Of a DNA stretch of 46,498 nucleotides, positions 11,831 to 26,810 are shown in pieces. The notes under the pieces were generated by a model. That model was not told the origin of the DNA. It did not search any database and was given only the letters and a program-made list of their open reading frames with translations. Made by a program: the position numbers and the translations under genes. Origin of the DNA: Planctomycetales bacterium (lineage in GTDB: Bacteria; Planctomycetota; Phycisphaerae; SM23-33); the NCBI GenBank assembly GCA_030642005.1, contig DAOWOP010000001.1:1-46498 (forward strand), written 5' to 3'. Position 1 is the stretch's first letter. Each line of letters opens with the position of its first letter.

Positions 11831-12823
11831 TCACCCTCTTCGCTGCGAAGGCGGCCGGATGCGCGGCCCAATGTGAGCACCATGTAGTCCATCGGACGTT
11901 GGCGGGAAGACACTCAAGTGGAGAAGATGGTCCTCGACCTGCAGGATCTGACCAAGCACGTCCTCGGCATCGAAACGCAGATCGTCACCAAGCCCCACCG
12001 CGTTGAAGGCCTGGCATTGCTGTTCGGCAACGTGCTCCAACAATACGCTGGCTGCCTTGGCGGTGAACGTCTTGTTGGCCTTGTCCTTGGCTGCCTCGGC
12101 GTCGACGGCGTAGCTCGCCACCAGTCGCGCCCAGACTGCCTCGAGCGTTGAGGGCGAGTCAAAGGCGTCCGCCGCCACGAAACGCCCACACACGGCCGCC
12201 ACGACGCCACACGTGCCAGAGGGGTACGGTAATGCCTCGTGATAGCGCCCGAGCACTTCGGCCAGTGTGTCCATTGCATCGGACATCGCACGGGTTGGTG
12301 AAGGGGCGGCGCAGGCCTCGATGTGTTCGGCCACGTTGTCCCACACGGCTCCTTGATCGCTTTCGGCCCGGCCACAGGCGCGAAGGCTGAACTGAACGTC
12401 GCGGCTCTTGCGCTGGCGCAAGCTGCTCGGCGCGTAGTTGCCGGTTTTGAAGGTCGGACTGGTGTGGCTCCACCGGCCTTCCTCGACGCAGGATACCGGG
12501 ATGCGGGTCTTGGACTTTGGCGGCAATAGCACACTCGTGTTGAGGATTCGATTCTGCTTCGCGCCCTGGAGTTCCTCGCCGTCCAGCAGCAATATCGGCC
12601 GGTCAGCGTTATTGACCGCCAGGAGTTCCGGCACTGTACCGGACTCATCAACCTCGGTTACCGTCAGCATACCAGCGTCGATGGCTTCGGACGCCAGCAG
12701 GTAGTCCTGGAATCGTTGCTGATGCCCCTCCCCCCGCAGGGGCACCAGCGTCAGGTTCTGGTGGCCTATCGCGGCCCCGGGTACCAGGGTTGGGAGAACG
12801 TCTTTCATTCGGATCGTGGTCAT
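11831..12823 (-). CDS. Conserved hypothetical protein, divergent from the WYL regulator gene
   Basis: The ORF track starts at TTG 12844. ATG at 12823 is preceded by AAGGAAAGGG and is the more likely start. The N-terminal half (NLTLVPL...LTVTEVDESGTVPELLAVNNADRPILLLDGEELQGAKQNRILNTSVLL) recalls a widespread bacterial DUF family (possibly ARPP-1/DUF6569-like). That is from memory only and unverified. Confidence 0.55.
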   Translation of the reverse strand: MTTIRMKDVLPTLVPGAAIGHQNLTLVPLRGEGHQQRFQDYLLASEAIDAGMLTVTEVDESGTVPELLAVNNADRPILLLDGEELQGAKQNRILNTSVLLPPKSKTRIPVSCVEEGRWSHTSPTFKTGNYAPSSLRQRKSRDVQFSLRACGRAESDQGAVWDNVAEHIEACAAPSPTRAMSDAMDTLAEVLGRYHEALPYPSGTCGVVAAVCGRFVAADAFDSPSTLEAVWARLVASYAVDAEAAKDKANKTFTAKAASVLLEHVAEQQCQAFNAVGLGDDLRFDAEDVLGQILQVEDHLLHLSVFPPTSDGLHGAHIGPRIRPPSQRRG

Positions 12824-12981: not shown

Positions 12982-13959
12982 ATGGCTCGAGGCGATGGCC
13001 TGTTTCGACAATGGGAATTGATCAAGGTGCTGCAAGCCCACCGGTTCGGCGTAAGCACCGACGAGATCGCCGCGCGCCTCGAGTGCAATAAGCGGACCGT
13101 CCAGCGTGACCTGGGCGTCCTCCAGGACATCTTCCCGATTAGTTACGAGCAGCGGGACCGTGGCAAGCGGTTCTGGAAGATGGCCTACAACACAATCGAA
13201 TCGGAAGAGCTTCAACTGACGATGACCGAAATGTTGAGCCTGTTCCTCTCGCAGCAACTGCTCCTGCCGCTTTCGGGAACCCAGTTCGGCGACGGCCTCC
13301 AGACGGCCTTGCAGAAGATTCGAGCGCTGCTGCCGGCGCGGGCGCTGACGTACTTCGATGGCCTCGACGAGTCATTCTTCATCAAGAACCTGGCCAACCA
13401 CGACTACTCCGGCCAGGACAAGGAAATCCGCATCATCAACGAGGCCATCCTGAACCAGAAGACTGTGAAGGTAATCTATCGCTCGGCCAGCAAGGGTCGT
13501 GAGGTCATCAGTGAGTTCCACCCGTACGGCATGGTCCTGCTGCACGCGTCGCTGTACTGCATCGGCTACCTCGCATGCTACGACGAAGTCCGCACGCTCA
13601 AGGTGGCCCGGATCAAGGGCCTGACGCGGCTGGACAAGACGTTCAACAAGCCACTTGATTTCTCGCTGGCTGGCCACTTCCAGGGCGCGTTCGGTGTCTT
13701 CCAGGCTAAGAAGAAGCAGAAGATTCGAGTTGAATTCACCGGATGGGCGGCCACGAACGTTCGGGAAATGCAGTGGCATCCGACCCAGAAGATAGTCAAG
13801 GATGCTGGCGACAAGGTCGTCGCCACGTTCGATCTGGGCAACACCGTCGAGTTCAAGCGGTGGGTGCTGGGGTTCGGACTGCACGCCCGCATCATCAGTC
13901 CCAAGGCACTGGCCGAGGACCTCCGGGACGAAATCCAGAGCATGGCCAAGAATTATTAA
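12982..13959 (+). CDS. WYL-domain transcriptional regulator (HTH-WYL-WCX architecture, BrxR/CapW-like)
   Basis: N-terminal wHTH (WELIKVLQAHRFGVSTDEIAARLECNKRTVQRDLGVL), central WYL-type segment (VKVIYRSASKGREVISEFHPYGMVLLHASLYCIGY) and a C-terminal extension. RBS AAAGGA lies 7 nt upstream of the ATG. Confidence 0.85.
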   Translation: MARGDGLFRQWELIKVLQAHRFGVSTDEIAARLECNKRTVQRDLGVLQDIFPISYEQRDRGKRFWKMAYNTIESEELQLTMTEMLSLFLSQQLLLPLSGTQFGDGLQTALQKIRALLPARALTYFDGLDESFFIKNLANHDYSGQDKEIRIINEAILNQKTVKVIYRSASKGREVISEFHPYGMVLLHASLYCIGYLACYDEVRTLKVARIKGLTRLDKTFNKPLDFSLAGHFQGAFGVFQAKKKQKIRVEFTGWAATNVREMQWHPTQKIVKDAGDKVVATFDLGNTVEFKRWVLGFGLHARIISPKALAEDLRDEIQSMAKNY

Positions 13960-14047: not shown

Positions 14048-15934
14048 ATGAACGAAAAAAAGCGTTGTCACCGGCTCAAGTCGCTGTCGGTGGTCGGTGG
14101 GTTTCTGGATGGGTTGAATATCGAGTTTGCCGACGGGCTGAATTGTCTTATCGGCCATCGTGGTACGGGCAAGACGACCGTGCTGGAGTTTATCCGTTAT
14201 GCCCTCGACGAGTTTCCGCAAGACGATGGAGGGCTGGCCCGCAAGCGGGTCGAAGCACTGGTCAAAAGCAACCTCAGCGACGGCCGCATCCGGCTGGCAC
14301 TGGAGACCAAGGATGGGTTGGAGTACATCGTCGACCGGACCGCCAGTGGCGAGCCGATGGTCCTGACCACTGATGAGCAACCGACGGACGTTCGCATCAA
14401 CACGGCGGGCATTTTCAGCGCCGATATCTTCAGTCAGAACGAGGTCGAGAACATCGCCGACAGTCCACAGTCGCAGCTGGAGCTGATTGACAAGTTCGCA
14501 GCCGGTCAGATCGCAGAGGTCAACCGCAAGGTGACGGCGGTGCGGGCCAAGATGGAGGCGAACACCAACGCCATTGTTACCCATGACCAGCAGTTGAAAG
14601 GTCTGGTCGACGAGGTCTCCGCGCTGCAGTTCATCGAGTCGAAGATCAAGTCCCTTACCGATGATAAGAGCGACCAGACGGATGATGAGGTTAACGTCGC
14701 GCAGCAGCATCGTGCGCTGCGGGGACGTGAGAGCCAGGCGGTCAAGGAGGCAGAGGAACTGATCCAGCAATACAGCCAGTGGCTCCACGATTCGCGCGGT
14801 CAGTTTATCCAGCGAATCGAAACGGCCTTCGACCCGTCAATGTTGGACGGGCCGAATGGCAAGGTGATGAGCCGCATTCAGGAGAATCTCAGGCGGCTTG
14901 GGAGCAAACTGGATCGCCTGTTCGACCAGGCCGCCGGCGTGGTTGATTCCGGTGGGAATGAACTGGCGGAACTGGTCGGCAAGCTCCAGCACGCCCACCA
15001 GCAGCAGGAGCTGGCGTTCCGCGACCTGATCGCCAAGGACAACCATGCACGCGGGGTGGCCACGGAGCGGGCGGAATTGGAAAAGAAACGTAATGATTTG
15101 CTAGCCAAGGATCGGCGTAAGGCTGAGCTTCAAAAGCAGATCGACCAGCTCTATCGGGAACGGTCTGATCTGGCCGGGCAGCTCCGTGAATTGTGGTCCG
15201 AGCGATTCGAGCTGCGGCAGCAGGTCGCCAACTGGATTAACGAGGGCGCGACGTCGCCTATTCGCGTCCGGATCGACCAGTGCGGCAACCGTTCGGTCTA
15301 CCAGCAGGCGTTGGCCGGCTGGATGAAGGGATATGTGCGCCAGTACAACCCGGCGGCCAGGAAGATAGCGGACTACGTGCCACCGAGCGACCTGCTGCGG
15401 ATGGTCACCGAGGGACGCACCGATGATCTTCAGGCCCAAGCGGAACTCGGAGACACGCAGATGGCCAAGGTGATGGAGGCCCTGAACCGTCTTGATGTCC
15501 AACTGCAGCTCGACTCGGTTGAACTGGCCGATCTGCCACGGCTTGAACTGCTGGACGGTGAGGAGTGGAAGAACTCTCTGCATCTTTCGACCGGCCAGAA
15601 GTGCACGACGATTCTGCCGATCCTGCTGCTGGAGAGCGACAACCCATTGCTCGTCGATCAGCCTGAGGACAATCTCGACAACCGCTATATCTACGACACG
15701 GTGGTCAATGCCATCCATCGGGTGAAGCAGAACCGCCAGATTATCCTGATCACGCACAACCCGAACATTCCCGTTCTCGGCGAGGCGTCGGCGGTGTACG
15801 TGCTGACCAGCGACGGCGAGCGAGCCCGTATGGCGAACCAGGGCTCCGTGGACGACTGCAAAACCGAGATCATCAATCTCCTGGAAGGCGGCAAGGAAGC
15901 CTTTGTCCGCAGGAAGGACAGGTACAAATACTGA
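14048..15934 (+). CDS. SMC/Rad50-like ABC ATPase with a long central coiled-coil insert
   Basis: Walker A IGHRGTGKTT at the N-terminus. About 330 aa of heptad-like, charged sequence in the middle. Signature-like LSTGQK and Walker B/D-loop LLVDQPEDNLD near the C-terminus. Confidence 0.75.
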   Translation: MNEKKRCHRLKSLSVVGGFLDGLNIEFADGLNCLIGHRGTGKTTVLEFIRYALDEFPQDDGGLARKRVEALVKSNLSDGRIRLALETKDGLEYIVDRTASGEPMVLTTDEQPTDVRINTAGIFSADIFSQNEVENIADSPQSQLELIDKFAAGQIAEVNRKVTAVRAKMEANTNAIVTHDQQLKGLVDEVSALQFIESKIKSLTDDKSDQTDDEVNVAQQHRALRGRESQAVKEAEELIQQYSQWLHDSRGQFIQRIETAFDPSMLDGPNGKVMSRIQENLRRLGSKLDRLFDQAAGVVDSGGNELAELVGKLQHAHQQQELAFRDLIAKDNHARGVATERAELEKKRNDLLAKDRRKAELQKQIDQLYRERSDLAGQLRELWSERFELRQQVANWINEGATSPIRVRIDQCGNRSVYQQALAGWMKGYVRQYNPAARKIADYVPPSDLLRMVTEGRTDDLQAQAELGDTQMAKVMEALNRLDVQLQLDSVELADLPRLELLDGEEWKNSLHLSTGQKCTTILPILLLESDNPLLVDQPEDNLDNRYIYDTVVNAIHRVKQNRQIILITHNPNIPVLGEASAVYVLTSDGERARMANQGSVDDCKTEIINLLEGGKEAFVRRKDRYKY

Positions 15935-17082
15935 TGATTGAACGGACTCAATCCAACCTGGAAGAGGCCTGCAGCCTGCTGCACCGGAACCCGCAACATA
16001 TGTCGGGCGACGAACGCCGACGTTTGGTCACGAGCATTACGGACGCCATCCTGTGCGATGATGCCGCCGGCGATACGGTGGTTACCGATCTGGTCGACCT
16101 GCTGGCCCGCGACCCTGACTGGGCCGTTCGGCTCGATGTGGCGCGGATGGTGCATCTGCTTGATGACGAGTCGTGCAGCCGCTTGGTGGCGATTTTCCGG
16201 GGCGATTGCAACAGTTACGTCCGCAGCCATGCCGAGCGGAGCCTCGCCCGGCAGCGTAAGGTCCGTCAGACTTCGAGCCGCAAACGCATCGAATGCCGAA
16301 CTTACTCAGAGCAACTGGACCAGTTGACTCGTCAGTACGGCAAACGAGTCGCGGCCAAGGTCCAGGCCCTTGCCGACCAGCGGTACGCCATGCTCGCCGC
16401 CGCCGTGGCCCATGACGTGCGAAGCATTCTTACGACGCTCTCGGCCAACGCGGCCGCCCTTGCTGATGAGCTTGGTACGGCGAACCGAGCAGCCTCCATC
16501 CTCGAGGACATCGGATTCCTCAAGCGGACCATCGAGGCGATGGAACAGTTTACCAAGCCGCTGCCGGTCCAGCGTCATCCCGAAGACCTTCAACAGATGA
16601 TCCAGCAGGCCATCGAAAAGGCTCGGGAAGGCGTGATCCAACAGCGTCACGATCCCTCAGCCGTGGAGGTCGTGGTAGCAGCCGCGCCGGCCATTCGACT
16701 GCGAGTGTCTCGCCGCTTGATTGTGTTTGCGCTAACGAACGTGATCCAGAACGCCATCGAGTGTTTCGCCGACCGCGAGGTAGACTCGCTGCGGGCTGGG
16801 CGTATCGAGGTGCAGGTGGTCGTGGACGGCTACGAAACGCGGATTATCGTCATTGATGATGGCCCTGGAATCGAGCTGGAGGTACTCAAGGAACTGACCT
16901 CTTTCGCACCCACCGGGCCGAACAAGTCCAAGCGTAACAGCTCGGGCTGGGGCCTTAGCCTGGTGCATAAGTACGTCACTGCTCACGGCGGGTCGGTGGC
17001 CATCGACAGCGAGATGAACCAGGGCACAACCGTAGTGGTCACACTGCCCATGCGAGATTCAGCCGGGGGAGATGACGAATGA
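15934..17082 (+). CDS. Soluble histidine kinase with an N-terminal HEAT-repeat-like region
   Basis: HEAT-like LARDPDWAVRLDVARMV, H-box AAAVAHDVRSIL, N-box NVIQNAIEC, G boxes VIDDGPGIE and GWGLSLV. No TM segments. 1-nt overlap (TGATG) with the upstream gene and ATGA overlap with the downstream gene. Confidence 0.85.
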   Translation: MIERTQSNLEEACSLLHRNPQHMSGDERRRLVTSITDAILCDDAAGDTVVTDLVDLLARDPDWAVRLDVARMVHLLDDESCSRLVAIFRGDCNSYVRSHAERSLARQRKVRQTSSRKRIECRTYSEQLDQLTRQYGKRVAAKVQALADQRYAMLAAAVAHDVRSILTTLSANAAALADELGTANRAASILEDIGFLKRTIEAMEQFTKPLPVQRHPEDLQQMIQQAIEKAREGVIQQRHDPSAVEVVVAAAPAIRLRVSRRLIVFALTNVIQNAIECFADREVDSLRAGRIEVQVVVDGYETRIIVIDDGPGIELEVLKELTSFAPTGPNKSKRNSSGWGLSLVHKYVTAHGGSVAIDSEMNQGTTVVVTLPMRDSAGGDDE

Positions 17083-18140
17083 AGGTGCTCGTGGTTGAAG
17101 ACGACCGTAAGATCAAGATCGAGACCATCGATGATTGCCTGGAATCCCCGGGCCACGTCAGTGACTGGGCACAGAACCAGCAAGAAGCCAACGGCCTGCT
17201 GGTCGCCAACAACTACGATCTGATTCTGCTTGACCTGCAGATTCCATCGAGACCGGGTGGCAAAGACTCGCCCGAATTCGGCAAGAACTTGCTGAAACAG
17301 ATCCGCGCACGCAAGGGACGGGATGTGCCGGTGATCCTGATGACGGCCCAGTACCAGCACTGCGTAGACCTGATGATCGAGCTTCAGGATATCGGTATCG
17401 ACGGCAGTATCGCCAAGCCGTTTCCGACGTCGGGGCGAACACTGGCCGTGGTGATCGAGGAGGTGATGGAAAAACATCGGCGTTTCCGGCGGGCGGCCAA
17501 AGCGAAGGACCAGACCGAGTCGCTCACGACGTTCGCCGGCGGCGTGCTGGCCTATCACCCGCGCCGCATCGAGCTGTGCGGTGAGACCATCGCCGAGAAG
17601 AGTCGAAGGGGCTATGCCTGGCAGATTCTCCATGTGCTCCGCGAGACGAACGACAAAGGCAAGTATATCCATCTGGGCAGCCAACGTCTGGCACCCAAGC
17701 TCGACCCGAAGCCCATGCAGAACACGCTGATCCGGTCGATCTGCTCACTGCGGTCCCGCATCCGAAAACTCATGCGGAATCACCTTGGGCAGGATTGTGG
17801 CCAAGAGGACATCATCGGCAATGACGATCATGGCTACTACCTGCTGGACTGGCTCATCACCGAGGTGTACGACGAGGCCGGGACGCTGGTCGGTGGGGGA
17901 AACGGTGTGGCCAAGTCGGCCCATGCGAAACAAGGCGGCGAGCCCGCCCAGCAGTTCAGCGAAAAGCAGCGATGGGTGCTGGCCCAGTTGGCGTCGGAAG
18001 TGAATCTAACCCGTCGTGACGTTGAGACGGAGTTCCACATCAGCGAACGCACGGCCAAAAGGGTGCTCGGCGAGTTGTCGGGGGCAGGCATGATCGAGTT
18101 CGACCGGTCGGAAAGCCCCGGCTTCTACCGGCTGAAGTAA
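17079..18140 (+). CDS. Response regulator: REC domain, OmpR/PhoB-type winged helix, and an additional C-terminal HTH
   Basis: MKVLVVEDD, DLILLDLQIP (acceptor Asp), PVILMTAQ, AKPF. The middle region follows the Trans_reg_C pattern (RRIELCGETI...YAWQILHVL...IRSICSLRSRIRKL...HGYYLL). The C-terminal segment ISERTAKRVLGELSGAGMIEF is HTH-like. Confidence 0.85.
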   Translation: MKVLVVEDDRKIKIETIDDCLESPGHVSDWAQNQQEANGLLVANNYDLILLDLQIPSRPGGKDSPEFGKNLLKQIRARKGRDVPVILMTAQYQHCVDLMIELQDIGIDGSIAKPFPTSGRTLAVVIEEVMEKHRRFRRAAKAKDQTESLTTFAGGVLAYHPRRIELCGETIAEKSRRGYAWQILHVLRETNDKGKYIHLGSQRLAPKLDPKPMQNTLIRSICSLRSRIRKLMRNHLGQDCGQEDIIGNDDHGYYLLDWLITEVYDEAGTLVGGGNGVAKSAHAKQGGEPAQQFSEKQRWVLAQLASEVNLTRRDVETEFHISERTAKRVLGELSGAGMIEFDRSESPGFYRLK

Positions 18141-18281
18141 CGTGAGCGTTCTTGCGGATCAGAATCTGTATCGGCGTATGGTGACATGAGTTGGAATCAT
18201 GCTGACACCTCAGTCCCGGCGCGTTAGCATGGGTGGCGCAAGTCGAGACTGTTTCGTGCATGGAAAGCGGGCAGAGTTGGC

Positions 18282-21200
18282 ATGAGTCGGCACAATGACC
18301 TTGTGGAGGACTACCTGCAGGATGGCGGGCAGTTGTCAGAGGCAGTGATGGTTGAGAATCTGGAACAGTGCGAACCTGAAGACCTGAACGGGGATGCAGC
18401 CCTCGCGATCTCTAAGATCGCTGAGGACCAACGTGGCCTCTATGAGCGTGAGCCGAGAGAGCTGATCAGCCACTATAACCGCGAGACGAGTGCGCTCGAT
18501 GGTTACCGGGGTCGCCAGATCCTAGAGCTGCTCCAGAATGCAGACGACGCCGGTGCTGATCTCGCGGATGGCTCCCAAGTCGTTTTTGCCTTGGATCGCC
18601 ATCATCTTGTTGTTGCCAACACGGGAACACCGTTCACTTACGACGGGCTGATGTCACTGGTCATCAGTGATTGCAGTCCGAAGCAGCTTGAGCAGAATCG
18701 CTTCATTGGCTGCAAAGGATTGGGCTTTCGGGCCGTGTTGACGTGGACTGAACGGCCCTTGATTGTCAGTGGCTCGCTTCAGGTGTATTTTGACCGTCAG
18801 GCAGCGACTCGCTATGTCGAATCGTTGGCCCAGGACGGTTCAAGGCCCAACCGCGTAGATGATTACCACCGCTCGGTTGGTCGTTGGCCAGTTCCAGTGA
18901 TGCGATTTCCTTTGGTGCCAGCAAACGACCACCCAGACCTTCGGGTTGTACAGCGGTTCCAAGCGAGGGGGTTTACTACGGTAGTCGTATTACCGCTGCC
19001 TGAAGGAGATCGAGGCGATGAAGTGTTCGCGGAAGCTGAGGAACAGCTGACAGAACTACCCTCTGCAGCGTTGCTCTTCTGCCGGCACTTGGTCGATGTT
19101 AAAATCGAAGGCGCTGTGACAAGAAACTGGCTCTTGATCCGCGAGGAAGTAGACCACGAGAGGTCAAGGGTCATTATCTCCGATGGTGAGCAGAGTACTA
19201 CTACTTACTGGGATATCTACCGGCGATCAGGAAGGGTGCCACCAGAGGCCGATACCGAGTCCACAGGTGGCCGGCAGGAGTATGAAACAGGAGTTGCTGT
19301 ACCCGAAACAACAGACGCACCATACGACCGGAACGCTCTTTGTGTGTTTTTTCCCACCCGCGAACGCCTGCCATGCCCGCTTATCTTCCACGCAACGCTC
19401 GAGACAACGGAAGACCGAAATCGGATTGTCGATCACGCATCGAATCGCTATGTCCTGAAGGCATTAGCGGCGCACTTGGCCAGCGTTCTTGAGCAGGAGT
19501 CGCAGGGCGAAGATTCACATAGGCCCTTACGACTGCTGAGCGGAATCGAGAACGCCGACCCTGAACTCGTGAGGTTGGGCTTCGTCGAAAGCGCGAAACA
19601 AGCCGTGCGGGACACGCGGTTATTTCCCCGTCTCGACGGTCGTTTGGAAACAGCCGACAACACGGTTCTTCCGCCGCATGACGTATGGGCCGATGTGGCG
19701 GACGCCAGATGGTTCCCGGAAATGCTAGTGCTACCCTCGAACGAACGAACTGTGGACCTTGTGCGTTGGTTGGGGCTCTCGTGGCTGGACCGGGATTCTC
19801 TGAAGTTGCGTCTGCGGACGATGGTCGCGGCGGCTGAGCCTGAACGAGCGGGCACAACGCTTGGCCAACTGGTTGATGCGAACCAGCTGCGCTCTATTGG
19901 AGTCAATGGCTTTCTGCTGGAACGGCAGGGCTGTCCTGTTGCCGAAGGTGAAGAGTGTTTCTTCACGCCGACCGAGGAGTTGCCGCCACTGCCAGCATGG
20001 GCGCAAGGCGTGCGATTCCTGGATGCCGCTTTTCAGCGTGCGCTGTTGCAGGCATCCGGCCACTCGTCCCTTCGCGGCCTGGCCGGCGAGATGGAGCGAA
20101 ACGCGGCCAAGGTATCCGAGTACCGATTCGACACTGTGGCGCGTGCGATCATTTCACCCCTGAATTTGGATAGCGAATTGCCCGATGCCGAGCGAGTGCA
20201 ACGCTGGCGAGAGATCTTGGCATGGCTGCTTCGGGCGTCTGAGGGTTCGCGGCAAGTTCTTTCGCAGCTACCGGTCAATGTCGTGACGGCTAAAGGCACA
20301 CTAAAGCGAGCAACTTCTCTATACCTCTCTGGCGAATACCAACGTGGTCGACTCGTGGCCCGTCTGTACGGGCCGCTCGATGAGGACGACTTCGTGGCGA
20401 AGCCTGAAGGATTGGGCTTGTCCGAACTCGGCGAGGTAGAGGTGGAGGAGTTCCTGATCGCCCTTGGGGTCCATGCAACGCCACGGTCTACATCACTATC
20501 CACCACCTATAGTCGGCCGAATGTGGACTACCGCGCTTTCCGCGAGTTCGTGGTGGATAGCCTTCCATTCCCGATCTCCGTGCGATCAAAGCTGTGCGAA
20601 TCGCCAAGCGATGTGCGCAGCCACTGCAGCAGTTACCAGATCAAGGGTGTGAACGTACCTGATCGGTTCCTACGCATACTCAAAGAGGGAGATCCCGTCG
20701 CCGTCATGGCCTACCTGATGTCTGAACAGCAGACAGTCTTGTCTGCCGAGAACATCGAGAGCGCATGTTTCCAGGCCACGATTGAAAATGAACGGAACTA
20801 CCGGGATGATCACGCCGTGCCCATCCCCAACCCGGTGCTGCATTGGCTTAGAGAGACCCCATGGGTGCCAGGCCAAGATGGTGAGCGGCATCGTCCCGCT
20901 GAGATCATGCTGAGCCGCATCGGCCTGAGGGTGCTGCCCAGCGTGTACTGCCGACATGCGATTGATCACCGTAATGAGATGCTGGCCTCGCGGGGTGGCA
21001 AACAGGCCATGGACGCGGTCTTGTGTCGTCTCGGGGTTGTGGCATCGCTGGAGACGATGGCGAGTGAGCAGGTCTACGACCTCCTCCTGTCTTTGCCCGA
21101 GCGCGACCCGCAAGGACAATCCGTCTCGGCGATCTACCGCACGTTCCTGGAGTCGAATATCACCGCCGAGGACGGTCCCAACCGCTCGGAGTTTCTGCGG

Positions 21201-22628
21201 AACGGCAAGGTGTGGGCCAGGTATCAGGGCGAAGGCCATTTCCTGCCTGTAGCGCAGGTGCGGTACAACGCGAACGTCACTTTGCCAGACGCAGTCGTGT
21301 CACGCATAGCTCTGCTCGACCTGCCACGGCGTCGTAACGCCACGGCGGTGAAGCAGTTGCTCGACGTCAAGCCGCTGTCGTCAGGGGAAGTCGCGTTGGA
21401 AGTCGTCCAAGACGACACCGAGTACGACGTCCACAGCGAAGATGCCAACGCATTCTTGCGGCGGTGCATCCCGTACATATACGCGCTGCGACTCGGCAAG
21501 AAGATAGACGATGATTTCCGAGAGCGTAACTTGCTCAAGCGCACGTCACTATACGTCTGCAATTGCCTGGCGGTTCGCGTGTCGATTGAGGGGCAAGAGC
21601 CGGAAACGCTGATCTTGGATCATGCTAAAGACCACATCTGCATCGAATCACAACTCTACCTTGTGGGTCAATATGATCCGGATGGGGCGGGGGCGACAAG
21701 CTTCTGGTTGTCCGTGGCTGGACTTGTTGCAGAGGCCCTTGGGACCGACATTGCGGCCGAAGTCAGTGCTGTGCTCCGTTGCCGATCAGAGCGTGAAATG
21801 CAAGAGGTCGTGGAAGGGCTCCTCGGGCCGGAGGCAGGTGGGAAACTTGAGGAGGCACGACGGCGGTTCGATGACTGGGATATCGTGGGAGACGATGAGG
21901 ACATGGTCATCATACCTCCAAGCCCTGAGCCTGACCAGCCAGGAGAAGAAGGGAAAAAGAGCGACGAGGGAGGTGACGAGAAGACGGAGGGAAAAACAGC
22001 GGGACAAGACGACGAAAGCGGCGGTGAGGATGAGAATGAGGCTGGTGGCAAAGCCGGCACCGAGTCTGATCAGCGGTTCACAACAACCAGCCCCCCAGAC
22101 CGCAAGTCGAAGAAGAAGCGACGCCTTGTGATCAACCGCCATGGCGGCGGAACTGGCGGCGGTGGTCACGGACCTGTTGCGACGGAGAGTGTTACGTTCC
22201 AAATCGTGGAAGCCTTTGAGCGCCAAGATGGGGAAGGTAGGTTTGTGATCGACGTGAGCCATATTCGCGGAAGCGAGGGGTTCGGCTGTGACCTGCTCAG
22301 CATGAGTTCCGAGGATGTGAAAGAGAAGGCTCTTGCCAGCGGGGAGATCTCCGAGGGCGAAGTAGACAGGTTCATCGAGGTGAAGGGACGGAGTTCACGA
22401 ACAGGCGAGGTAGAACTTACAGAGAACGAATACCGCGCCGCCGAGAGGCTCGGAAACCGGTATTTTCTCTATCGTGTGTTCGTGGACCCAAGTGATTCGT
22501 CTGTGTACGAAGTCGCCGTGCTCCAGAACCCGGTTCGTTCTTCCGCAACGCGAACGGTGACGCGCTTCGATTTAAGCAAGGGTTCCGGGGCAGTCTGGTA
22601 CGCCCTCGAGGAGGTTACGGAAGAATGA
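18282..22628 (+). CDS. 1448-aa protein: sacsin/NOV-like GHKL ATPase head, large middle region, acidic low-complexity linker, C-terminal DUF3883-like PD-(D/E)xK nuclease domain
   Basis: N-box RQILELLQNADDAGA (18513-18557) and GCKGLGFRAVLTW. Acidic/Gly linker EEGKKSDEGGDEKTEG...GGEDENEAGG at ~21890-22170. C-terminal GCDLLS ... FIEVKGRSS ... YFLYRVF is typical of DUF3883 (from memory). Confidence 0.75.
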   Translation: MSRHNDLVEDYLQDGGQLSEAVMVENLEQCEPEDLNGDAALAISKIAEDQRGLYEREPRELISHYNRETSALDGYRGRQILELLQNADDAGADLADGSQVVFALDRHHLVVANTGTPFTYDGLMSLVISDCSPKQLEQNRFIGCKGLGFRAVLTWTERPLIVSGSLQVYFDRQAATRYVESLAQDGSRPNRVDDYHRSVGRWPVPVMRFPLVPANDHPDLRVVQRFQARGFTTVVVLPLPEGDRGDEVFAEAEEQLTELPSAALLFCRHLVDVKIEGAVTRNWLLIREEVDHERSRVIISDGEQSTTTYWDIYRRSGRVPPEADTESTGGRQEYETGVAVPETTDAPYDRNALCVFFPTRERLPCPLIFHATLETTEDRNRIVDHASNRYVLKALAAHLASVLEQESQGEDSHRPLRLLSGIENADPELVRLGFVESAKQAVRDTRLFPRLDGRLETADNTVLPPHDVWADVADARWFPEMLVLPSNERTVDLVRWLGLSWLDRDSLKLRLRTMVAAAEPERAGTTLGQLVDANQLRSIGVNGFLLERQGCPVAEGEECFFTPTEELPPLPAWAQGVRFLDAAFQRALLQASGHSSLRGLAGEMERNAAKVSEYRFDTVARAIISPLNLDSELPDAERVQRWREILAWLLRASEGSRQVLSQLPVNVVTAKGTLKRATSLYLSGEYQRGRLVARLYGPLDEDDFVAKPEGLGLSELGEVEVEEFLIALGVHATPRSTSLSTTYSRPNVDYRAFREFVVDSLPFPISVRSKLCESPSDVRSHCSSYQIKGVNVPDRFLRILKEGDPVAVMAYLMSEQQTVLSAENIESACFQATIENERNYRDDHAVPIPNPVLHWLRETPWVPGQDGERHRPAEIMLSRIGLRVLPSVYCRHAIDHRNEMLASRGGKQAMDAVLCRLGVVASLETMASEQVYDLLLSLPERDPQGQSVSAIYRTFLESNITAEDGPNRSEFLRNGKVWARYQGEGHFLPVAQVRYNANVTLPDAVVSRIALLDLPRRRNATAVKQLLDVKPLSSGEVALEVVQDDTEYDVHSEDANAFLRRCIPYIYALRLGKKIDDDFRERNLLKRTSLYVCNCLAVRVSIEGQEPETLILDHAKDHICIESQLYLVGQYDPDGAGATSFWLSVAGLVAEALGTDIAAEVSAVLRCRSEREMQEVVEGLLGPEAGGKLEEARRRFDDWDIVGDDEDMVIIPPSPEPDQPGEEGKKSDEGGDEKTEGKTAGQDDESGGEDENEAGGKAGTESDQRFTTTSPPDRKSKKKRRLVINRHGGGTGGGGHGPVATESVTFQIVEAFERQDGEGRFVIDVSHIRGSEGFGCDLLSMSSEDVKEKALASGEISEGEVDRFIEVKGRSSRTGEVELTENEYRAAERLGNRYFLYRVFVDPSDSSVYEVAVLQNPVRSSATRTVTRFDLSKGSGAVWYALEEVTEE

Positions 22629-22667
22629 GGCTGTGCTGCTGCCACGGCCTTGCCCTCGCTGTCACCG

Positions 22668-22739
22668 GTGCCATGCCAAATCTGTTGCGGTGCCACTGCA
22701 GTGCCATGACAGTGCCAACGATGGATGGCACCAGTGCCA
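22668..22739 (+). repeat. Array of five direct GTGCCA copies phased at multiples of 11 bp, plus one inverted copy
   Basis: GTGCCA starts at 22668, 22690, 22701, 22712 and 22734 (offsets 0, 22, 33, 44, 66). TGGCAC at 22726-22731 forms the palindrome TGGCAC-CA-GTGCCA with the last copy. The array starts 40 nt after the stop of the 1448-aa gene. Confidence 0.75.
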
Positions 22740-22869
22740 ACGAATCGAGAGCGCATCGAGACGCCTGATCGGCGGAACTTCAGGCCGAAATCGGTCGATT
22801 CGCCGAGGCGCTACGAGTCCCGCACTTAACCTCCAGTAAACGGGTTACACAACCCGTCTCAACTCGAAC

Positions 22870-22901
22870 AAAGGCCCGCTTGAGCAATCCGGCGGGCCTT
22901 T
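22870..22901. terminator. GC-rich hairpin, candidate intrinsic terminator
   Basis: AAAGGCCCGC (22870-22879) pairs with GCGGGCCTTT (22892-22901) across a 12-nt loop. A/T runs flank it on both sides. A smaller hairpin ACGGGTT/AACCCGT lies at 22840-22857. Confidence 0.5.
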
Positions 22902-23023
22902 CGTATATCCCTATGACACAAAGACCTTTGCGCGTTTGGCCGCACCCGCTCTCCGTTTAATCGCGTGATACGCCTACCCGCCCGTCCAGCCCAAAATCCC
23001 TCAAAATCGTCTCGAAGTCTCGA

Positions 23024-23156
23024 AATCGCGTGACGAGGTGCAAACTCGTCCCGTGATTGTATGTGGCTGTCGAAAGGCCACTTACAGCAAATGCACATTT
23101 TCGAGTTTTTTACGAAAATGTCAGTAGGCGAGGGGATGAAAACCCTCGTCCCGTGA
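23024..23156 (+). repeat. Two degenerate ~45-bp hairpin-containing units spaced exactly 100 bp apart
   Basis: The exact 12-mer CTCGTCCCGTGA occurs at 23045-23056 and 23145-23156. Each copy is the 3' arm of a local hairpin (GACGAGgtgcaaaCTCGTC; GAGGGgatgaaaaCCCTC). Related AATCGCGTGA boxes lie at 22959-22968 and 23024-23033. Confidence 0.6.
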
Positions 23157-23170
23157 CGTTTACAGTGCCA

Positions 23171-23205
23171 AAAAGCGCTCACATGATCGTCATGTGAGCG
23201 CTTTT
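23171..23205. terminator. Perfect 16-bp stem hairpin, candidate bidirectional intrinsic terminator
   Basis: AAAAGCGCTCACATGA (23171-23186), loop tcg, TCATGTGAGCGCTTTT (23190-23205). An A run precedes the stem and a T run follows it. Confidence 0.65.
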
Positions 23206-23391
23206 CCCATCCTCCACGACGGGCCGATGGCACCGGTGCCATATCTGCAATACTGCCGGGCTTCTTTTGGCGGCGGATTCGGAGCCAGCCATCCGACGCT
23301 ATCCCAGAAAACATCTTGACGCATGAGGCTACGAGATCGACAATATCATATGGTAGATTGCACTCTCCCCCGGGCGAAGGAATGGTATTCA

Positions 23392-24237
23392 ATGGATATC
23401 GACTGGCTCCAGAAGCGGTTCCCCGACTTGACCAATTTCGTCCCCTTGGCTCCAAGCGGGCAGAAGGAGGTATTTGCTGCGGATCACAAGACTGAGGGCG
23501 CAGTGGTGCTTAAAATATTCAAGCCGGGGTCTAACGCCGAGCGCATCCAACGAGAGATGCAATCACCGCTCAAGATGAGAAGTTCACGCATACCGACGAT
23601 ATACGAGTTGGGCCGAACAGATTCGCCTACCGGCGAGATCGTCTGGCTCCGAGAGAAGAAGGTTGAAGGCCAGAGCCTGAGGGAAATACTTAAGGCGAAG
23701 GGCAAGCTCGACGAGGGGACCACCATCAGGATTGGCCTCCATGTCATTGATGTGCTGGCTGCCGCCGAGGTCGCGAGCGTGGTTCATCGCGACATAAAGC
23801 CTGGCAACATCATCATTGCCATGGACGGCAGCGCGTGGGTAATCGATTTCGGGCTGGCGCGTCATCTCGATCAGGAGTCACTGACGCCTACCGTGGACAA
23901 ACTAGCTCCCTGCACGCCCGGCTACGCGCCCGTCGAGCAATTCACAAACCAGAAACACAACATCGACGCTCGAGCTGACCTGTTCGCAACGGGCGTGACT
24001 CTCTACGAGTGCCTTGAGGGTGAGAATCCGTTCCTCAAGGGAGTGATAGACTGGAAGGAAGCATTCGGTCGTGTTATGAACATGAAGATGCCCAGGATCG
24101 GAACCAGCGGTGTGTCGGAAGAGTTCGTCGATCTTGTCGACTCGATGACACGCACAAAGGCGGAACACCGCCCAGCTACGGCGGCGGTGGCGTTGCAGTG
24201 GATCAGAGAAATCGCCATGGCGCATAAGATCATCTAG
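23392..24237 (+). CDS. Ser/Thr protein kinase (Hanks type), kinase domain only
   Basis: VVLKIFKPG (catalytic Lys region), HRDIKPGNIII, DFGLAR, TPGYAPVEQ. The ORF track starts at 23323. ATG 23392 (MDIDWLQ) follows GAAGGAA and is the more plausible start. Confidence 0.85.
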   Translation: MDIDWLQKRFPDLTNFVPLAPSGQKEVFAADHKTEGAVVLKIFKPGSNAERIQREMQSPLKMRSSRIPTIYELGRTDSPTGEIVWLREKKVEGQSLREILKAKGKLDEGTTIRIGLHVIDVLAAAEVASVVHRDIKPGNIIIAMDGSAWVIDFGLARHLDQESLTPTVDKLAPCTPGYAPVEQFTNQKHNIDARADLFATGVTLYECLEGENPFLKGVIDWKEAFGRVMNMKMPRIGTSGVSEEFVDLVDSMTRTKAEHRPATAAVALQWIREIAMAHKII

Positions 24238-25488: not shown

Positions 25489-26308
25489 AGGCAACACGGG
25501 CATGACATGCCCATTCGTTGAACAACCATGACGCGTAGGAACCGGGCAACTTTGCCTTCTCGGCCCGGATCACTGGCCGGCGCATCGGCGTATCACATGT
25601 GAGCAGCCCGACACCCGTTTGCCTCAATTCAATCTCTAACTCGGCGGACTTTGGTACCCCCGGAAGGAGCAAATAAGACTCTGACGCGAACCAGCGGTTA
25701 AGAAATGCCTGTTCTAGGCCAGGTCGCCATGATCCAACCTTCGCCTCAATAGCGACTATGCGCCTGACGGCCATTAGCTTCCTAGGCCTCTGGGCTTGCC
25801 ATCGGTCCCGGGCACACCGCACTAGACCCATTGACTCCAGTTTGCGCAGGGCGCTACGAAGACCTACTGGGAACAAGAAACTGAGCCGAGCCTGATCCTC
25901 ACTCCCGCAGGTGGCCAAGTGGTGAAGCACGCAGATATCATGCTTGCTGAGGCCAGTTCGCCGAAAGCTCCATTCGCTGGCAGCGGCAGAGTCCAGATAA
26001 ACGATCACTAAGTCTGGAAACCCCGTCTCGAGTCGGGGTTCGACGAACACCAATCGCACCTGCCCGTTTGGTGCCGGTGCCAAGTTGCTCCGAATGAACG
26101 CATCCACAAGCTCCTTTTCCTGCCCCTCCGTCACCCGACGGTGGTAGAGCCCAGCGCCACGTAGCGAGGGGAAGTATTCGATTGTCTCTGCGGAAATCGC
26201 AATCATGGTGCGTCCTGTCTCGTCTCCGGTTACCGAACCGCCAGTTTCCTGAAGCTTATCGTAACGCCGCTGTAGCCGTTTGGGAAGAATCTGGCCCGCA
26301 CGCATCAT
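25430..26308 (-). CDS. Hypothetical protein with PD-(D/E)xK nuclease-like motifs and an inserted wHTH-like segment
   Basis: GFPDLVIVYLD ... IVAIEAKVGSW fits a D...ExK pattern. LHHLATCGSEDQARLSFLFPVGLRSALRKLESMGLV lies between them. The likely start is the ATG at 26308 that overlaps the upstream stop (ATGA). The ORF track extends to 26362. The 3' end overlaps the convergent gene by 59 bp. Confidence 0.45.
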   Translation of the reverse strand: MMRAGQILPKRLQRRYDKLQETGGSVTGDETGRTMIAISAETIEYFPSLRGAGLYHRRVTEGQEKELVDAFIRSNLAPAPNGQVRLVFVEPRLETGFPDLVIVYLDSAAASEWSFRRTGLSKHDICVLHHLATCGSEDQARLSFLFPVGLRSALRKLESMGLVRCARDRWQAQRPRKLMAVRRIVAIEAKVGSWRPGLEQAFLNRWFASESYLLLPGVPKSAELEIELRQTGVGLLTCDTPMRRPVIRAEKAKLPGSYASWLFNEWACHARVASTDLATHAEASHLGLRPTY

Positions 26309-26772
26309 CGACCGTTTGATTGCCCGATGATTAGCCATTGTTGTCGCTGCTTCTGCCAACACGCCGGCAGATTCTTGTGCAACTTGCTCAAACTGATCCC
26401 ATCCGGCTCATCACCCCGCAGGATGGCCTCGATGATGTCGGGGGCGAGGGATGTCAGACGGAGCATCCGCCCGGCGTAGGTGCGGTCAACGGCGAGGGCT
26501 TGGGCCAGGTTTTCGACGCCAGCGTACTGGCCGGATTCGAGTTGCTCCTGCCAGCGGTGGGCCTTGGCGATGGCCTCGATGAGCGTCTGGTTGGCGTCGC
26601 GTTCGGGCGTCGGCGCGGCGGCTGGCTCGCCGTCGGTCAGTATCATCTGCCTGCCGTTGCGGCGGCGGAACCGCACGGGGATATGGACCACCACGGCTTG
26701 GCCTTCGCGTCGGACGCGGAGGCCCGGGTAGCGGCGTTTTTGTTCGTTCTCGATAACGGCCGTGTCATGCAT
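26305..26772 (-). CDS. Small DNA-binding (HTH-like) protein of a family often seen next to recombinases and in mobile elements
   Basis: AKAHRWQEQLESGQYAGVENLAQALAVDRTYAGRMLRLTSLAPDIIEAILRGDEP matches, from memory, a conserved ...SYVGRxLRLTLLAPDIVEAIL... family. ATG 26772 has the GAGGAA RBS. The ORF track starts at 26805. Confidence 0.55.
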   Translation of the reverse strand: MHDTAVIENEQKRRYPGLRVRREGQAVVVHIPVRFRRRNGRQMILTDGEPAAAPTPERDANQTLIEAIAKAHRWQEQLESGQYAGVENLAQALAVDRTYAGRMLRLTSLAPDIIEAILRGDEPDGISLSKLHKNLPACWQKQRQQWLIIGQSNGR

Positions 26773-26810
26773 TTGCTCGTTCCTCGATTGGCTGGAGTTC
26801 ATCAACGATT

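Follow-up and report, generated by a model that had tools for sequence, protein, structure and literature searches.

A helically phased array of GTGCCA half-sites lies in a mobile anti-phage island at the distal edge of a bay for interchangeable effectors, and this array is real, phased, conserved, fixed in position and linked to one family of response regulators. With a probability of roughly 0.55, it acts in cis as a multi-site platform on which the response regulator (RR) of the island itself, its candidate binder, docks; that the RR binds there, and with what effect, we only infer. The island was analysed in a window of 46,498 nucleotides, by which the whole stretch of DNA is meant, and in related loci (L numbers). 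The genes of the window that concern the array are the following.

14048 to 15934, plus strand: AAA_23 (SMC/RecF-like) ATPase, triad member.
15934 to 17082, plus strand: HEAT-repeat histidine kinase, triad member.
17079 to 18140, plus strand: response regulator, the candidate array binder, with a REC domain, a divergent OmpR/PhoB-like fold at residues ~150-275 and, at the C-terminus, a winged helix of MarR/TrmB-like type.
18282 to 22628, plus strand: TmtA (Tiamat) effector, the variable "cargo" between the RR gene and the array (PADLOC TmtA, E=7e-199; Pfam SACS and NOV_C).

The ATPase, the kinase and the RR form a triad that is conserved in L009-L016, L021-L023 and L220-L223, and the island also encodes a WYL regulator (12982-13959). 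The cargo at the tmtA position varies among loci, including TmtA, GmrSD, DACNV and toxin-antitoxin genes. TmtA has the sacsin/HATPase-like N-terminus and the NOV_C (DUF3883) C-terminus that define Tiamat. Exact look-up of the kinase protein returned no record, and literature searches returned no description of the triad or of Tiamat regulation. Nor did they return one of the conserved architecture that sequence comparison reveals in Planctomycetota, made up of the triad, a swappable effector, a phased array and a tmRNA-type junction.

The array itself starts 32 bp past the tmtA stop codon and consists of these elements.

22660 to 22739, plus strand: whole array, seven half-sites of consensus v-C-r-GTGCCA-w on one helical face, equal to one 66-bp "super-unit".
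22660 to 22673, no strand: palindrome P1, TGTCAC-CG-GTGCCA, imperfect; the core CACCGGT does not vary among the window, L002, L004 and L005.
22690 to 22717, plus strand: three direct half-sites GTGCCA (22690, 22701, 22712), at +22, +33 and +44 from P1.
22726 to 22739, no strand: palindrome P2, TGGCAC-CA-GTGCCA, with 66 bp between the centres of P1 and P2.

The initial annotation had described five direct copies in an 11-bp register with one inverted copy, and on recount its coordinates proved exact: plus-strand GTGCCA starts at 22668, 22690, 22701, 22712 and 22734 (offsets 22, 11, 11 and 22), and the inverted copy at 22726. Its extended form CrGTGCCAh holds in all five direct copies, and the further copies that it had placed at 23165 and at 23228-23241 (23228 on the minus and 23236 on the plus strand) are present. 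It overlooked the second, imperfect palindrome at 22660-22673, because of which the layout is palindrome, three direct sites, palindrome, that is, two 14-bp palindromes with centres 66 bp apart. The proposed enrichment of the hexamer is local: across the window GTGCCA occurs 26 times against 26.1 expected by chance, although nine of these copies are packed into 574 bp. Five same-strand copies fall within 72 bp, compared with a maximum of three in 300 first-order Markov simulations, and the chance expectation for such clustering is about 1e-7 to 2e-7 (Poisson, about 2e-7). A transposon-end model predicts a mirror-image array upstream of the triad, but neither the 46-kb window nor any of the 21-kb loci holds another cluster. 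The model was rejected, with no such mirror image and no transposase conserved with the element.

The same design was found in 11 independent loci, mostly from Planctomycetota: the window (with L001), L002, L004, L005/6/9-11, L008, L012, L016, L017, L020, L220/221 and L222. Four of them can be aligned (the window, L002, L004 and L005) and share a layout of a palindrome, direct sites at +22, +33 and +44, and a palindrome at +66. All four place P1 and P2 65-66 bp apart; L002, L004 and L005 keep the +33 and +44 sites in register, and L004 keeps the +22 site. Column identity across the four loci is 80% in half-sites versus 44% in spacers. Over nine arrays, 108 of 156 same-strand site distances equal 0 or 10 modulo 11. 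The 66-bp super-unit is repeated two to four times in L012, L020 and L220, and half-sites per array range from seven to about 20. Degenerate half-sites such as GTGAAA and GTGACA occur in L002 and L005; the window copy is the best preserved among the loci compared, with six of seven half-sites perfect. The array begins 17-34 bp past a plus-strand cargo stop in at least five lineages (the window, L002, L005/9, L220 and L223), which suggests that its position is selected.

These observations support the earlier description of a helically phased, non-coding element of the protein-binding type. The opposite reading, that the region is a structured RNA (a tmtA 3' UTR or an sRNA) or a small overlapping ORF, with repeats reflecting RNA helices or peptide repeats, is largely refuted and retains next to no probability. 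The palindromes are able to fold, and the region is probably transcribed because it follows the tmtA stop and precedes the first terminator-like hairpins. However, RNAalifold gave one weak helix with a positive (unfavourable) covariation term and no RNA-type covariation in the array, the palindrome halves evolve independently (TTTCAC versus GTGTCA in L002), and Rfam gave nothing credible at gathering thresholds or permissive E-values. As for the ORF, a gene caller placed one of 47 aa across the array in the identical contig L001, but among relatives its length ranges over 25-56 aa, and L004, L012, L016 and L017 lack it. Since it is conserved neither in length nor in sequence, judged by eye, the ORF was rejected as a real gene and the region is taken as non-coding; the 11-bp period is also out of frame.

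What ties the array to the RR is their joint occurrence. The RR family is encoded in all 11 array-bearing loci, and in 10 of these the order is RR, cargo, array, downstream of the triad and past the variable cargo, with GTGCCA on the RR strand. In the exception, L008, the array is inverted and stands directly upstream of a gene for a REC-less RR homologue; here a half-site overlaps a promoter-like TTGTCA-17-CATAAT element at its -35-like hexamer, the sole such case. Conversely, the two TmtA loci without the RR (L003 and L007) lack the array, though their TmtA proteins are no less similar than those of array-bearing loci. In L004 the C-terminal winged helix of the RR has a stand-alone paralogue of 163 aa, whose gene starts ~30 bp from the array. 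In the distant triad L223 the RR is 32% identical, both putative recognition helices are changed, and the phased array is built of another word, TGACCCTG: five exact TGACCC copies spaced 21, 43, 22 and 33 bp, with a sixth copy, TGACTCTG, between the second and third, starting 34 bp past the cargo stop. Together, the co-occurrence in 11 of 11 loci, the absence from the RR-less TmtA loci, the winged-helix paralogues adjoining arrays in L004 and L008, and the paired change of regulator and motif in L223 support the proposal that the protein at 17079-18140 is the best candidate binder. Because the array always adjoins an att-like junction, the linkage could also be mere shared membership of one island end.

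The RR had been called an OmpR/PhoB-type regulator encoded just upstream of the array. Its gene is in fact 4.5 kb away, with tmtA between, and the family label needs qualification. The OmpR/PhoB family binds head-to-tail on direct repeats with a 10-11-bp period. Pfam Trans_reg_C gave no match to the RR, even with the isolated segment at E<=10, and a PDB profile search matched the receiver domain alone. In the AF2 model, however, residues 140-275 (pLDDT 89) resemble OmpR/PhoB DNA-binding domains in fold: the nine best Foldseek PDB matches are all of this type (including EmbR, GlnR, ArlR, AdeR, CovR and OmpR), with probabilities of 0.47-0.99 but E-values of only 0.014-0.55. The RR has in addition a C-terminal domain whose structure matches MarR/ArsR winged helices. 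For the C-terminal half, the best PDB matches are to ScpB, the tandem-winged-helix partner of SMC, and are weak (E~3e-3, TM 0.24-0.30, rmsd >11 A).

On the docking reading, the winged-helix domain or domains of the RR would load head-to-tail on the 11-bp-phased direct half-sites, and RR dimers would occupy the two palindromes, so that, over about 80 bp, a single DNA face would carry all the bound protein. The platform would mark the distal edge of a "cargo bay" with interchangeable effectors, here TmtA, 91 bp inside the island end at CCTCCA, and its function may be phosphorylation-dependent transcription control at this edge. Because the window array lies in the 3' region of tmtA, it could act there only as a roadblock or in antisense or boundary control, or be partly vestigial. 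Against the docking reading, a response regulator acting from 4.3 kb downstream of a gene is unusual for bacteria, half-site number varies widely, and two RR lineages carry no GTGCCA array despite nearly unchanged recognition helices, L013-15 (rearranged by mobile DNA) and L021-23.

The initial annotation had suggested that the array might drive a promoter, either for the downstream non-coding region or for the kinase operon. No promoter was found in or beside the window array on either strand; where an OmpR/PhoB box would lie at or upstream of a -35 element, this array follows the stop codon of a 4.3-kb gene. The RR-tmtA spacer provides tmtA with a conserved sigma70-like promoter of its own and is free of GTGCCA sites. 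A search of this spacer and of the WYL-ATPase spacer for GTGCCA or CACCGGTG sites gave just one-off hexamers, GTGACA and TGACAC, next to a sigma70-like promoter that is conserved. A role of the array as a switch for the neighbouring kinase genes is likewise not supported by the sequence comparison: the genes downstream of the array in relatives are unrelated, and identity breaks at CCTCCA 22830-22835, between array and kinase.

Related loci offer another view of promoter control. Minus-strand cargo operons start right beside the array in four of them, and a gene adjoins the array in the orientation "TGGCAC to gene" in L004, L008, L016, L017 and L020. The window array has no such gene, and it might be a decaying, non-functional relic of the operator or promoter of a divergent winged-helix operon that is still present in L004. 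The degenerate half-sites of L002 and L005 and a truncated second copy 400 bp away are in keeping with decay. We regard this as very improbable: the window copy is the best preserved of all, the register and the 66-bp span were kept where spacers fell to 44% identity, and the place shortly past a plus-strand cargo stop recurs in at least five lineages. The minus strand could alternatively be read as a row of sigma-54 promoters driving antisense transcription into tmtA, given that TGGCAC-N5-TGGCA resembles TGGCACG-N4-TTGCW and that the -24/-12 spacing equals the 11-bp period. Two one-mismatch matches to TGGCAC-N5-TTGCW lie on this strand (22691-22706 and 22702-22717), but the mismatch abolishes the conserved T of the -12 TTGC, and the number of matches in the window is at chance (2 versus 1.4). 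The comparative data already disfavour this reading, which we hold to be exceedingly improbable: orthologous positions in L002 and L005 read TGTCA or TTTCA, the distant triad carries TGACCCTG instead, and no activator AAA+ protein (Sigma54_activat) was found in the window.

The initial annotation had not seen that the element stands beside a tmRNA-type junction, whose parts in the window are as follows.

22740 to 22829, plus strand: conserved "tail" from array to junction, with GAGACGC (22758-22764) and GTCCCG (22817-22822).
22830 to 22835, plus strand: CCTCCA junction, att-core-like, identical to the 3' tip of the tmRNA gene; here homology between otherwise identical elements stops.
22836 to 22939, plus strand: unit "U", a homologue of the sequence directly downstream of ssrA in related genomes, with two hairpins (22840-22857, 22870-22901), then CGTATATCCCTATG and ACAAAGACCTTTGCGCG.
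23085 to 23245, minus strand: second module copy, inverted and truncated, aligning to the reverse complement of the tail and array start of L012, L020 and L220, and to L008 1-80.

The second copy contains GTGCCA at 23165, a 16-bp perfect hairpin (23171-23205), the palindrome TGGCAC-CG-GTGCCA (23228-23241) and, between hairpin and palindrome, CCTCCA (23211-23216). L012, L220 and L221 have a tmRNA gene as the immediate neighbour of the module, and L020 and the window have a remnant tip and flank; the window itself contains no tmRNA gene. In L012 and L220 the tmRNA 3' end reads ...GCCGCCTCCA, so CCTCCA equals its 3' tip, and the next 104 bp are homologous to the ssrA downstream flank; window 22830-22936 (CCTCCA and U) has 81% identity to L012 and 77% to L020, inverted there. 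By MAFFT, the last ~20 nt of the tail resemble the tmRNA T-arm and acceptor 3' strand; since the support is limited to these, the whole ~90-nt tail was rejected as a degenerate tmRNA 3' region. Elements break at or near this point: L005 and L009 share 99.96% identity along 7.5 kb, which is lost right after CCTCCA, the L006 contig ends in CCTCCA, and that of L001 breaks inside U, at 22914.

The main rival explanation arises from this setting: site-specific recombination would take place at the tmRNA-type core next to the array, and the array would provide its accessory sites, "arm-type" ones or those of a directionality factor. Bound to the phased repeats, winged-helix proteins of RDF/Xis-like kind, which might be the RR or stand-alone paralogues of it, would bend the DNA and control excision, integration or cargo exchange of the island. 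Winged-helix Xis/Cox proteins on phased direct repeats are the classical design of att arms. The array lies 91 bp from CCTCCA at its near end and 91-170 bp over its span, and CCTCCA is exactly where otherwise identical elements diverge and contigs break; CCTCCA and U represent the ssrA tip and downstream flank, and CCTCCA or CCTGCA follows ~35 bp past the array in L012-type loci. In addition, two modules in inverted orientation flank the core in the window, as would be expected of an attP-like hybrid junction, large serine recombinases are found beside the triad in L013 and L020, and the one in L002 shares an operon with a winged-helix paralogue. A precedent is provided by ssrA islands that stand in tandem and carry serine recombinases (PMC3146451). 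This explanation is nevertheless unlikely, if conceivable. No tyrosine integrase (Phage_integrase) was found in the scanned ORFs of the window or the called genes of related loci, and large serine recombinases, the type present, classically have no need of arm sites. Seven to ~20 copies and a 66-bp super-repeat are atypical of att arms, ~480 bp separate the array from the true ssrA tip in L012-type loci, and L021-23 keep the CCTCCA-plus-hairpin end without the array.

A different service to the island would be that of an iteron-, centromere- or loading-site-like element in the maintenance or DNA transactions of an island, possibly excised; by analogy with parS/ParB-SMC or ParR-parC, the RR might nucleate the SMC-like AAA_23 protein on it. 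Expandable clusters of 11-bp direct repeats are the design of parC and iteron arrays. The ScpB match and the adjacent SMC/RecF-like gene fit this idea, as do the ParB-like genes of L013 and a ParA-like ATPase in the L016 cargo, both of which are sporadic. Phased arrays are also common in viral contigs: at least 120 have GTGCCA-N5 triple repeats, and 76 have those of a composition-matched control hexamer. The idea remains quite improbable, as the ScpB match is weak, the islands are chromosomal with no sign of an autonomous form, and neither a Rep initiator nor a ParA/ParM with adaptor was found beside the array in the window or conserved among loci. The control hexamer is also common, and a homologue of the RR winged helix is missing from every GTGCCA viral contig; we conclude that hexamer arrays phased at 11 bp are a generic feature of mobile DNA. 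GTGCCA is thus no signature shared by a family, and these repeats were rejected as a marker of one phage protein family. The 332-bp module, compared by BLAST with plasmid and phage collections, gave just chance-level matches of 38-41 bp.

A bolder version of docking, distinctly unlikely in our estimate, has the whole sensor triad (the SMC-like ATPase, the HEAT kinase and the tandem-winged-helix RR that resembles ScpB) assembling on the array beside the tmRNA-type core. Infection sensing would then be coupled to an output other than ordinary promoter control, perhaps the excision of the island or an exchange of cargo at the bay, perhaps the control of a swapped-in effector over a long range or as a boundary, and the array would be the landmark of an undescribed modular immune island.

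To our knowledge, the silencing and activation of toxic defence effectors, Tiamat among them, are very poorly understood, and the array offers a concrete cis element for a two-component-regulated anti-phage island. If the RR binds it, the motif could help to locate such islands, with their cargo bays, in metagenomes, and would be an entry point to infection sensing by the ATPase-kinase pair. If the array serves recombination instead, it would represent unusual accessory sites coupled to phospho-signalling.

Among known systems, the pho box consists of tandem 11-bp direct repeats on which winged-helix response regulators are bound head-to-tail. The array shares with such OmpR/PhoB boxes direct repeats of 10.5-11 bp on one DNA face and a response regulator in the same element, the central domain of which is predicted to have an OmpR/PhoB-type fold. 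Unlike these boxes, it is placed beyond the distal end of a cargo gene and 91 bp short of the junction, rather than upstream of the RR operon; it mixes direct sites with two palindromes in a repeatable 66-bp super-unit; and its RR has a second winged helix and no recognisable Trans_reg_C signature, with no target promoter identified in the window. Arm-type, Xis and Cox arrays at tRNA or tmRNA genes are similar in their phased short direct repeats at most ~170 bp from a core that copies the t(m)RNA 3' tip, in the winged-helix readers to be expected and in their tandem, mosaic islands. Here, in contrast, large serine recombinases alone are present, in some relatives, with no tyrosine integrase; site number is variable and at times very high; and the array is coupled to a two-component regulator instead of a recombinase gene.

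The ssrA-GIs of Dehalococcoides have accumulated downstream of ssrA between copies of its 3' end, and carry serine recombinase and ParB-like genes with interchangeable cargo (McMurdie et al. 2011, PMC3146451). The islands described here are likewise ssrA-linked, with ssrA 3'-end copies, serine recombinase and ParB-like genes and swappable cargo, but they belong to Planctomycetota, carry anti-phage cargo and a conserved ATPase-kinase-regulator triad, and have in the phased array an element without counterpart in that description. Iterons and type II centromeres also have expandable clusters of 11-bp-phased direct repeats, yet no Rep, ParM or ParR partner is conserved with the present array and its context is chromosomal. 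In parC of R1, 11-bp repeats are bound by ParR, and iterons and type II centromeres in general assemble a protein filament or superstructure. Finally, regulators of the BrxR/CapW type bind inverted repeats in their own promoter. WYL/BrxR- and CapW-type control resembles the present case in that a defence-encoded DNA-binding regulator presumably gates a toxic effector, and a WYL regulator is encoded here as well; the difference is that here a long phased array occupies the opposite end of the effector gene, and phosphorylation controls the regulator.

By Pfam/PADLOC-type annotation of its genes, the window is a defence island, and the repeat array studied here lies in the gap of about 700 bp that follows tmtA. 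The relevant features are listed in island order.

Type I restriction-modification genes, first in the island
Type II methyltransferase and GHKL proteins, after the type I genes
ARPP-1 and WYL regulator, after these and before the ATPase
14048-15934, AAA_23 (SMC/RecF-like) ATPase
15934-17082, HEAT-repeat histidine kinase
17079-18140, response regulator
~18203-18235 (within 18175-18240), candidate sigma70-like tmtA promoter, CTGACA-17-TAGCAT (wider form gcTGACAc-17-TTAGCAT)
18282-22628, plus strand, TmtA of the Tiamat system (PADLOC E=7e-199)
22660-22739, array, TGTCACcgGTGCCA-N16-GTGCCA-N5-GTGCCA-N5-GTGCCA-N8-TGGCACcaGTGCCA (sequence read-out)
22668, 22690, 22701, 22712 and 22734, plus strand, starts of direct GTGCCA copies (exact match)
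22726, minus strand, inverted GTGCCA copy
23165 and 23228 (minus)/23236, further GTGCCA copies outside the array
23323-24237, PD-T4-6-like Ser/Thr kinase, beyond the gap

No tRNA or tmRNA gene was found in the window, and an Rfam search returned no family in this region. PADLOC also matched three MADS components, mad2 (weak), mad3 (9e-18) and mad6 (6e-35), at 6118-7476, 14048-15934 and 23323-24237; the genes belong to different island units, and common domains are the probable cause of the matches, not a MADS system.

The array starts 32 bp 3' of the stop codon of the 1448-aa tmtA gene. The five phased copies at 22668-22739 described by the initial annotation were re-found, with every direct-copy offset a multiple of 11, as were its inverted copy and the extra copies at 23165 and 23228-23241. 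The hexamer is not enriched in the 46.5-kb window as a whole (26 copies vs 26.1 expected by chance), yet nine of the 26 fall inside 574 bp. Five same-strand copies occupy 72 bp, for which the Poisson expectation is ~2e-7 and the maximum in 300 Markov-simulated windows was three. An imperfect palindrome at 22660-22673, previously overlooked, pairs with that at 22726-22739, so that three direct sites are bracketed by two palindromes with centres 66 bp apart. Elsewhere in the window, an 18/36-bp-period repeat (CCGGTG, TGGCGG) at 31950-32075 inside a DUF6515 gene (31662-32762) is a coding repeat, since its period is in frame.

Among TmtA relatives taken from genome and metagenome collections, a homologous stretch of ~210 bp lies directly 3' of the tmtA stop in a Planctomycetota MAG (L002) and in L005/L006, and 2.5 kb farther, behind three additional minus-strand genes, in L004. 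In all four lineages, window included, the palindromes are 65-66 bp apart and direct sites stand at +33 and +44; the +22 site is shared by the window and L004. Identity to the window is 80% in half-site columns vs 44% in the spacer columns between them. That the array acts as an RNA or an open reading frame is barely credible: the palindrome halves of L002 are altered independently (TTTCAC vs GTGTCA), RNAalifold yields a single weak helix whose covariation term is unfavourable, and the short ORF called over the array ranges from 25 to 56 codons among relatives and is elsewhere absent. For these reasons the conservation pattern, as read from the alignments, is a signature of protein-binding DNA. 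Minus-strand sigma-54 promoters are very improbable as well, as one-mismatch matches occur at chance frequency and are not conserved.

The array is linked to the triad of ATPase, kinase and regulator. TmtA loci without kinase and regulator (L003 from Desulfurivibrio, and L007) are also without the array, even though their TmtA is 64-74% similar to that of the window, equal to the similarity in array-bearing loci. A protein search with the regulator returned ~85 closely related proteins, chiefly of Phycisphaerae, Pirellulales and Sedimentisphaerales. In the loci fetched for these relatives the order ATPase-kinase-regulator is invariant and the genes behind it, here called cargo, differ. The triad resembles a modular sensor whose effectors can be exchanged.

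Cargo behind the triad, and presence of a GTGCCA array behind the cargo on the regulator's strand
L009-11: TmtA; array
L012: DACNV; array
L220/221: 304-aa protein; array
L020: GmrSD and DUF4145; array
L016: ParA-like ATPase and HigBA; array
L017: 640-aa protein; array
L222: AmiA-like genes; array
L021-23: giant HEAT-repeat proteins; no array
L013-15: ECF sigma factor and alpha-2-macroglobulin; no array

A MauJ-like protein also occurs among the cargo of triad loci (the window, L009-L016, L021-L023 and L220-L223). With the window, L002, L004 and L008, the array-bearing independent loci number 11, each with a single GTGCCA/CACCGGTG cluster. In L012, L220 and L020 the 66-bp super-unit recurs two to four times, giving up to ~20 half-sites. 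In nine arrays, 108 of the 156 distances between same-strand sites equal 0 or 10 mod 11, and 66 sites give the half-site consensus v-C-r-GTGCCA-w. In L016, the GTGCCA array is extended at a different spacing by six direct CCGGTGACGGCGT... copies of ~37-bp period (14590-14745), which separate it from a minus-strand 162-aa gene. The array-less L013-15 carry mobile-element fragments and a 65-bp inverted repeat on both sides of the cargo; in L013 the ~65-bp arms lie at ~11470-11550 and ~19700-19765, and the right arm is followed by a duplicated piece that codes for the last 53 residues of the regulator (19784-19945).

The response regulator is the sole sequence-specific candidate binder conserved in all loci, and a divergent triad is the most informative case. 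In L223, a viral-collection contig whose regulator is 32% identical to that of the window, a phased TGACCCTG array (11991-12117) begins 34 bp after the stop of a 295-aa cargo gene, with five exact TGACCC copies at spacings of 21, 43, 22 and 33 bp and a sixth copy, TGACTCTG, at ~12043 between the second and third. This is the same architecture written in a different word, and both candidate recognition helices of the L223 regulator are changed. No host factor with a fixed specificity, such as sigma-54 or IHF, can account for this change of word, whereas a putative co-evolving DNA-binding protein encoded by the island can. At its end (12470-12510) the L223 contig carries a tRNA/tmRNA-like 3' end (reverse complement GTTCGAATCCTACCCCCTCCACCA), which has no ARAGORN call since the contig stops there.

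Paralogues of the regulator's DNA-binding part also accompany the arrays. For example, a 163-aa winged-helix protein in L004, 31-35% identical to the regulator's C-terminal part, is encoded ~30 bp from the array and transcribed away from it; L008 has an inverted array, then a receiver-less regulator homologue, then tmtA, with one half-site overlapping a TTGTCA-17-CATAAT element; and in L002 the regulator gene and tmtA are separated (1102-3047) by an inserted large serine recombinase and 135-aa winged-helix paralogue, whose stop and start codons overlap.

The initial label of the regulator as OmpR/PhoB-type can be defended from its predicted fold, has no support in its sequence, and is incomplete. 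Pfam recognised a receiver domain and, weakly, a C-terminal helix-turn-helix of the TrmB/HVO_A0261 type, without Trans_reg_C, and a PDB profile search matched the receiver alone. AlphaFold2 models of residues 140-353 (pLDDT 85) and 140-275 (pLDDT 89) predict a domain of beta-sheet, three helices and beta-hairpin, joined by a disordered linker to a small winged helix. For the first domain (140-275), the nine top PDB matches are all OmpR/PhoB-type DNA-binding domains, from EmbR, GlnR, ArlR, AdeR, CovR and OmpR (probability 0.47-0.99, E 0.014-0.55), with target TM-scores of 0.5-0.64 against stand-alone domains. Such domains bind head-to-tail on 10-11-bp direct repeats, with which the direct-site layout of the array is consistent. 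The two-domain model (window 17496-18137) best matched the tandem winged helix of ScpB, weakly (E~3e-3), with MarR/ArsR regulators among the top matches for the last domain. ScpB is an SMC partner, and the gene two positions upstream of the regulator is SMC-like.

That the array is a centromere, an iteron or an SMC-loading site is quite unlikely. In favour of such a role, viral contigs (L024-L219) often carry a hexamer three times at 11-bp spacing, at least 120 of them for GTGCCA vs 76 for the control GCGTCA; one viral GTGCCA group, located inside a gene ending ...KYDDYQPNF or at that gene's 3' end, looks like origin iterons.

On its outer side the array borders an island end tied to the tmRNA gene. 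Over 7.5 kb, L005 and L009 share 99.96% identity, which is lost right after CCTCCA; this hexamer lies 91 bp past the array, and the L006 contig terminates on it. A tmRNA gene (ssrA) stands beside the module in L012, L220 and L221, with the 3' end ...GGGTTCGACTCCCGCCGCCTCCA. Window 22830-22936, comprising CCTCCA, two terminator-like hairpins, CGTATATCCCTATG and ACAAAGACCTTTGCGCG, is 81% identical to the L012 tmRNA tip with its downstream flank, and a remnant copy in L020, which lies 74 kb from L012 on one 4.6-Mb contig, matches it at 77%; the ~20 nt before the window's CCTCCA (GAGTCCCGC...CCTCCA) resemble a tmRNA T-arm and acceptor strand. Furthermore, the tail and array start of L012, L020 and L220, when reverse-complemented, align with window 23085-23250, which makes the GTGCCA copies at 23165 and 23228-23241 the remnant of another module in inverted orientation. 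This module holds a perfect 16-bp inverted repeat (AAAAGCGCTCACATGA/TCATGTGAGCGCTTTT, 23171-23205), terminator-like on both strands, and a related hairpin occurs at the start of L008. The simplest reading of these sequences is that the island of triad and TmtA was inserted at the tip of ssrA, its array-bearing end now forming the distal junction, and that the unit at 22836-22939, the spacer, the truncated array and the kinase would be older ssrA-downstream DNA. The Logan contig identical to the window breaks within that unit, at 22914. A 166-aa minus-strand ORF at 26305-26805, with a weak ParB-HTH match and 59% identity to a 149-aa gene after a degraded large serine recombinase in L020, suggests remains of an integration module right of the junction.

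The main rival explanation, a set of accessory recombination sites serving the adjacent core, draws on this closeness and on classical Xis/Cox design. We regard it as possible if doubtful, as there is no tyrosine integrase, the site number is variable and high, and L021-type ends are without arrays.

We favour, at a probability of about 0.55, the array, at the outer edge of a bay where effector genes are exchanged, as a docking platform of the island's response regulator. In L004, L016, L017 and L020 the cargo operons are on the minus strand with 5' ends toward the array, which is promoter-proximal there; control of cargo transcription would be its natural function. In the window, tmtA is on the plus strand with its own promoter candidate in the regulator-tmtA spacer, common to the window, L002, L004 and L009, and no promoter-like site was seen at the array; a GTGACA...TGACAC inverted pair lies just upstream of that candidate. 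Here the array may act as a roadblock, in 3'-end or antisense control or as insulation from the junction, or may be partly idle; a mere relic is distinctly unlikely. The initial observation is confirmed and its interpretation partly supported: the choice of the regulator appears right in spirit, but neither control of the kinase operon nor the plain OmpR label is supported. The kinase operon lies across the recombination junction and has no link to the array.

A precedent comes from Dehalococcoides (PMC3146451), where ssrA islands in tandem carry serine recombinases and ParB-like genes; L013 and L020 have large serine recombinases and ParB-like genes beside the triad. Operators built of phased direct repeats, att arms and ssrA islands each belong to an already known kind, and a literature search found no description of the array-junction-triad combination or of the triad with swappable cargo. 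That combination unites a conserved 66-bp palindrome-direct-palindrome unit, its place at a defence island's tmRNA-type end, a tie to an ATPase-kinase-regulator triad whose effectors can be swapped, and an array word that co-varies with the regulator.
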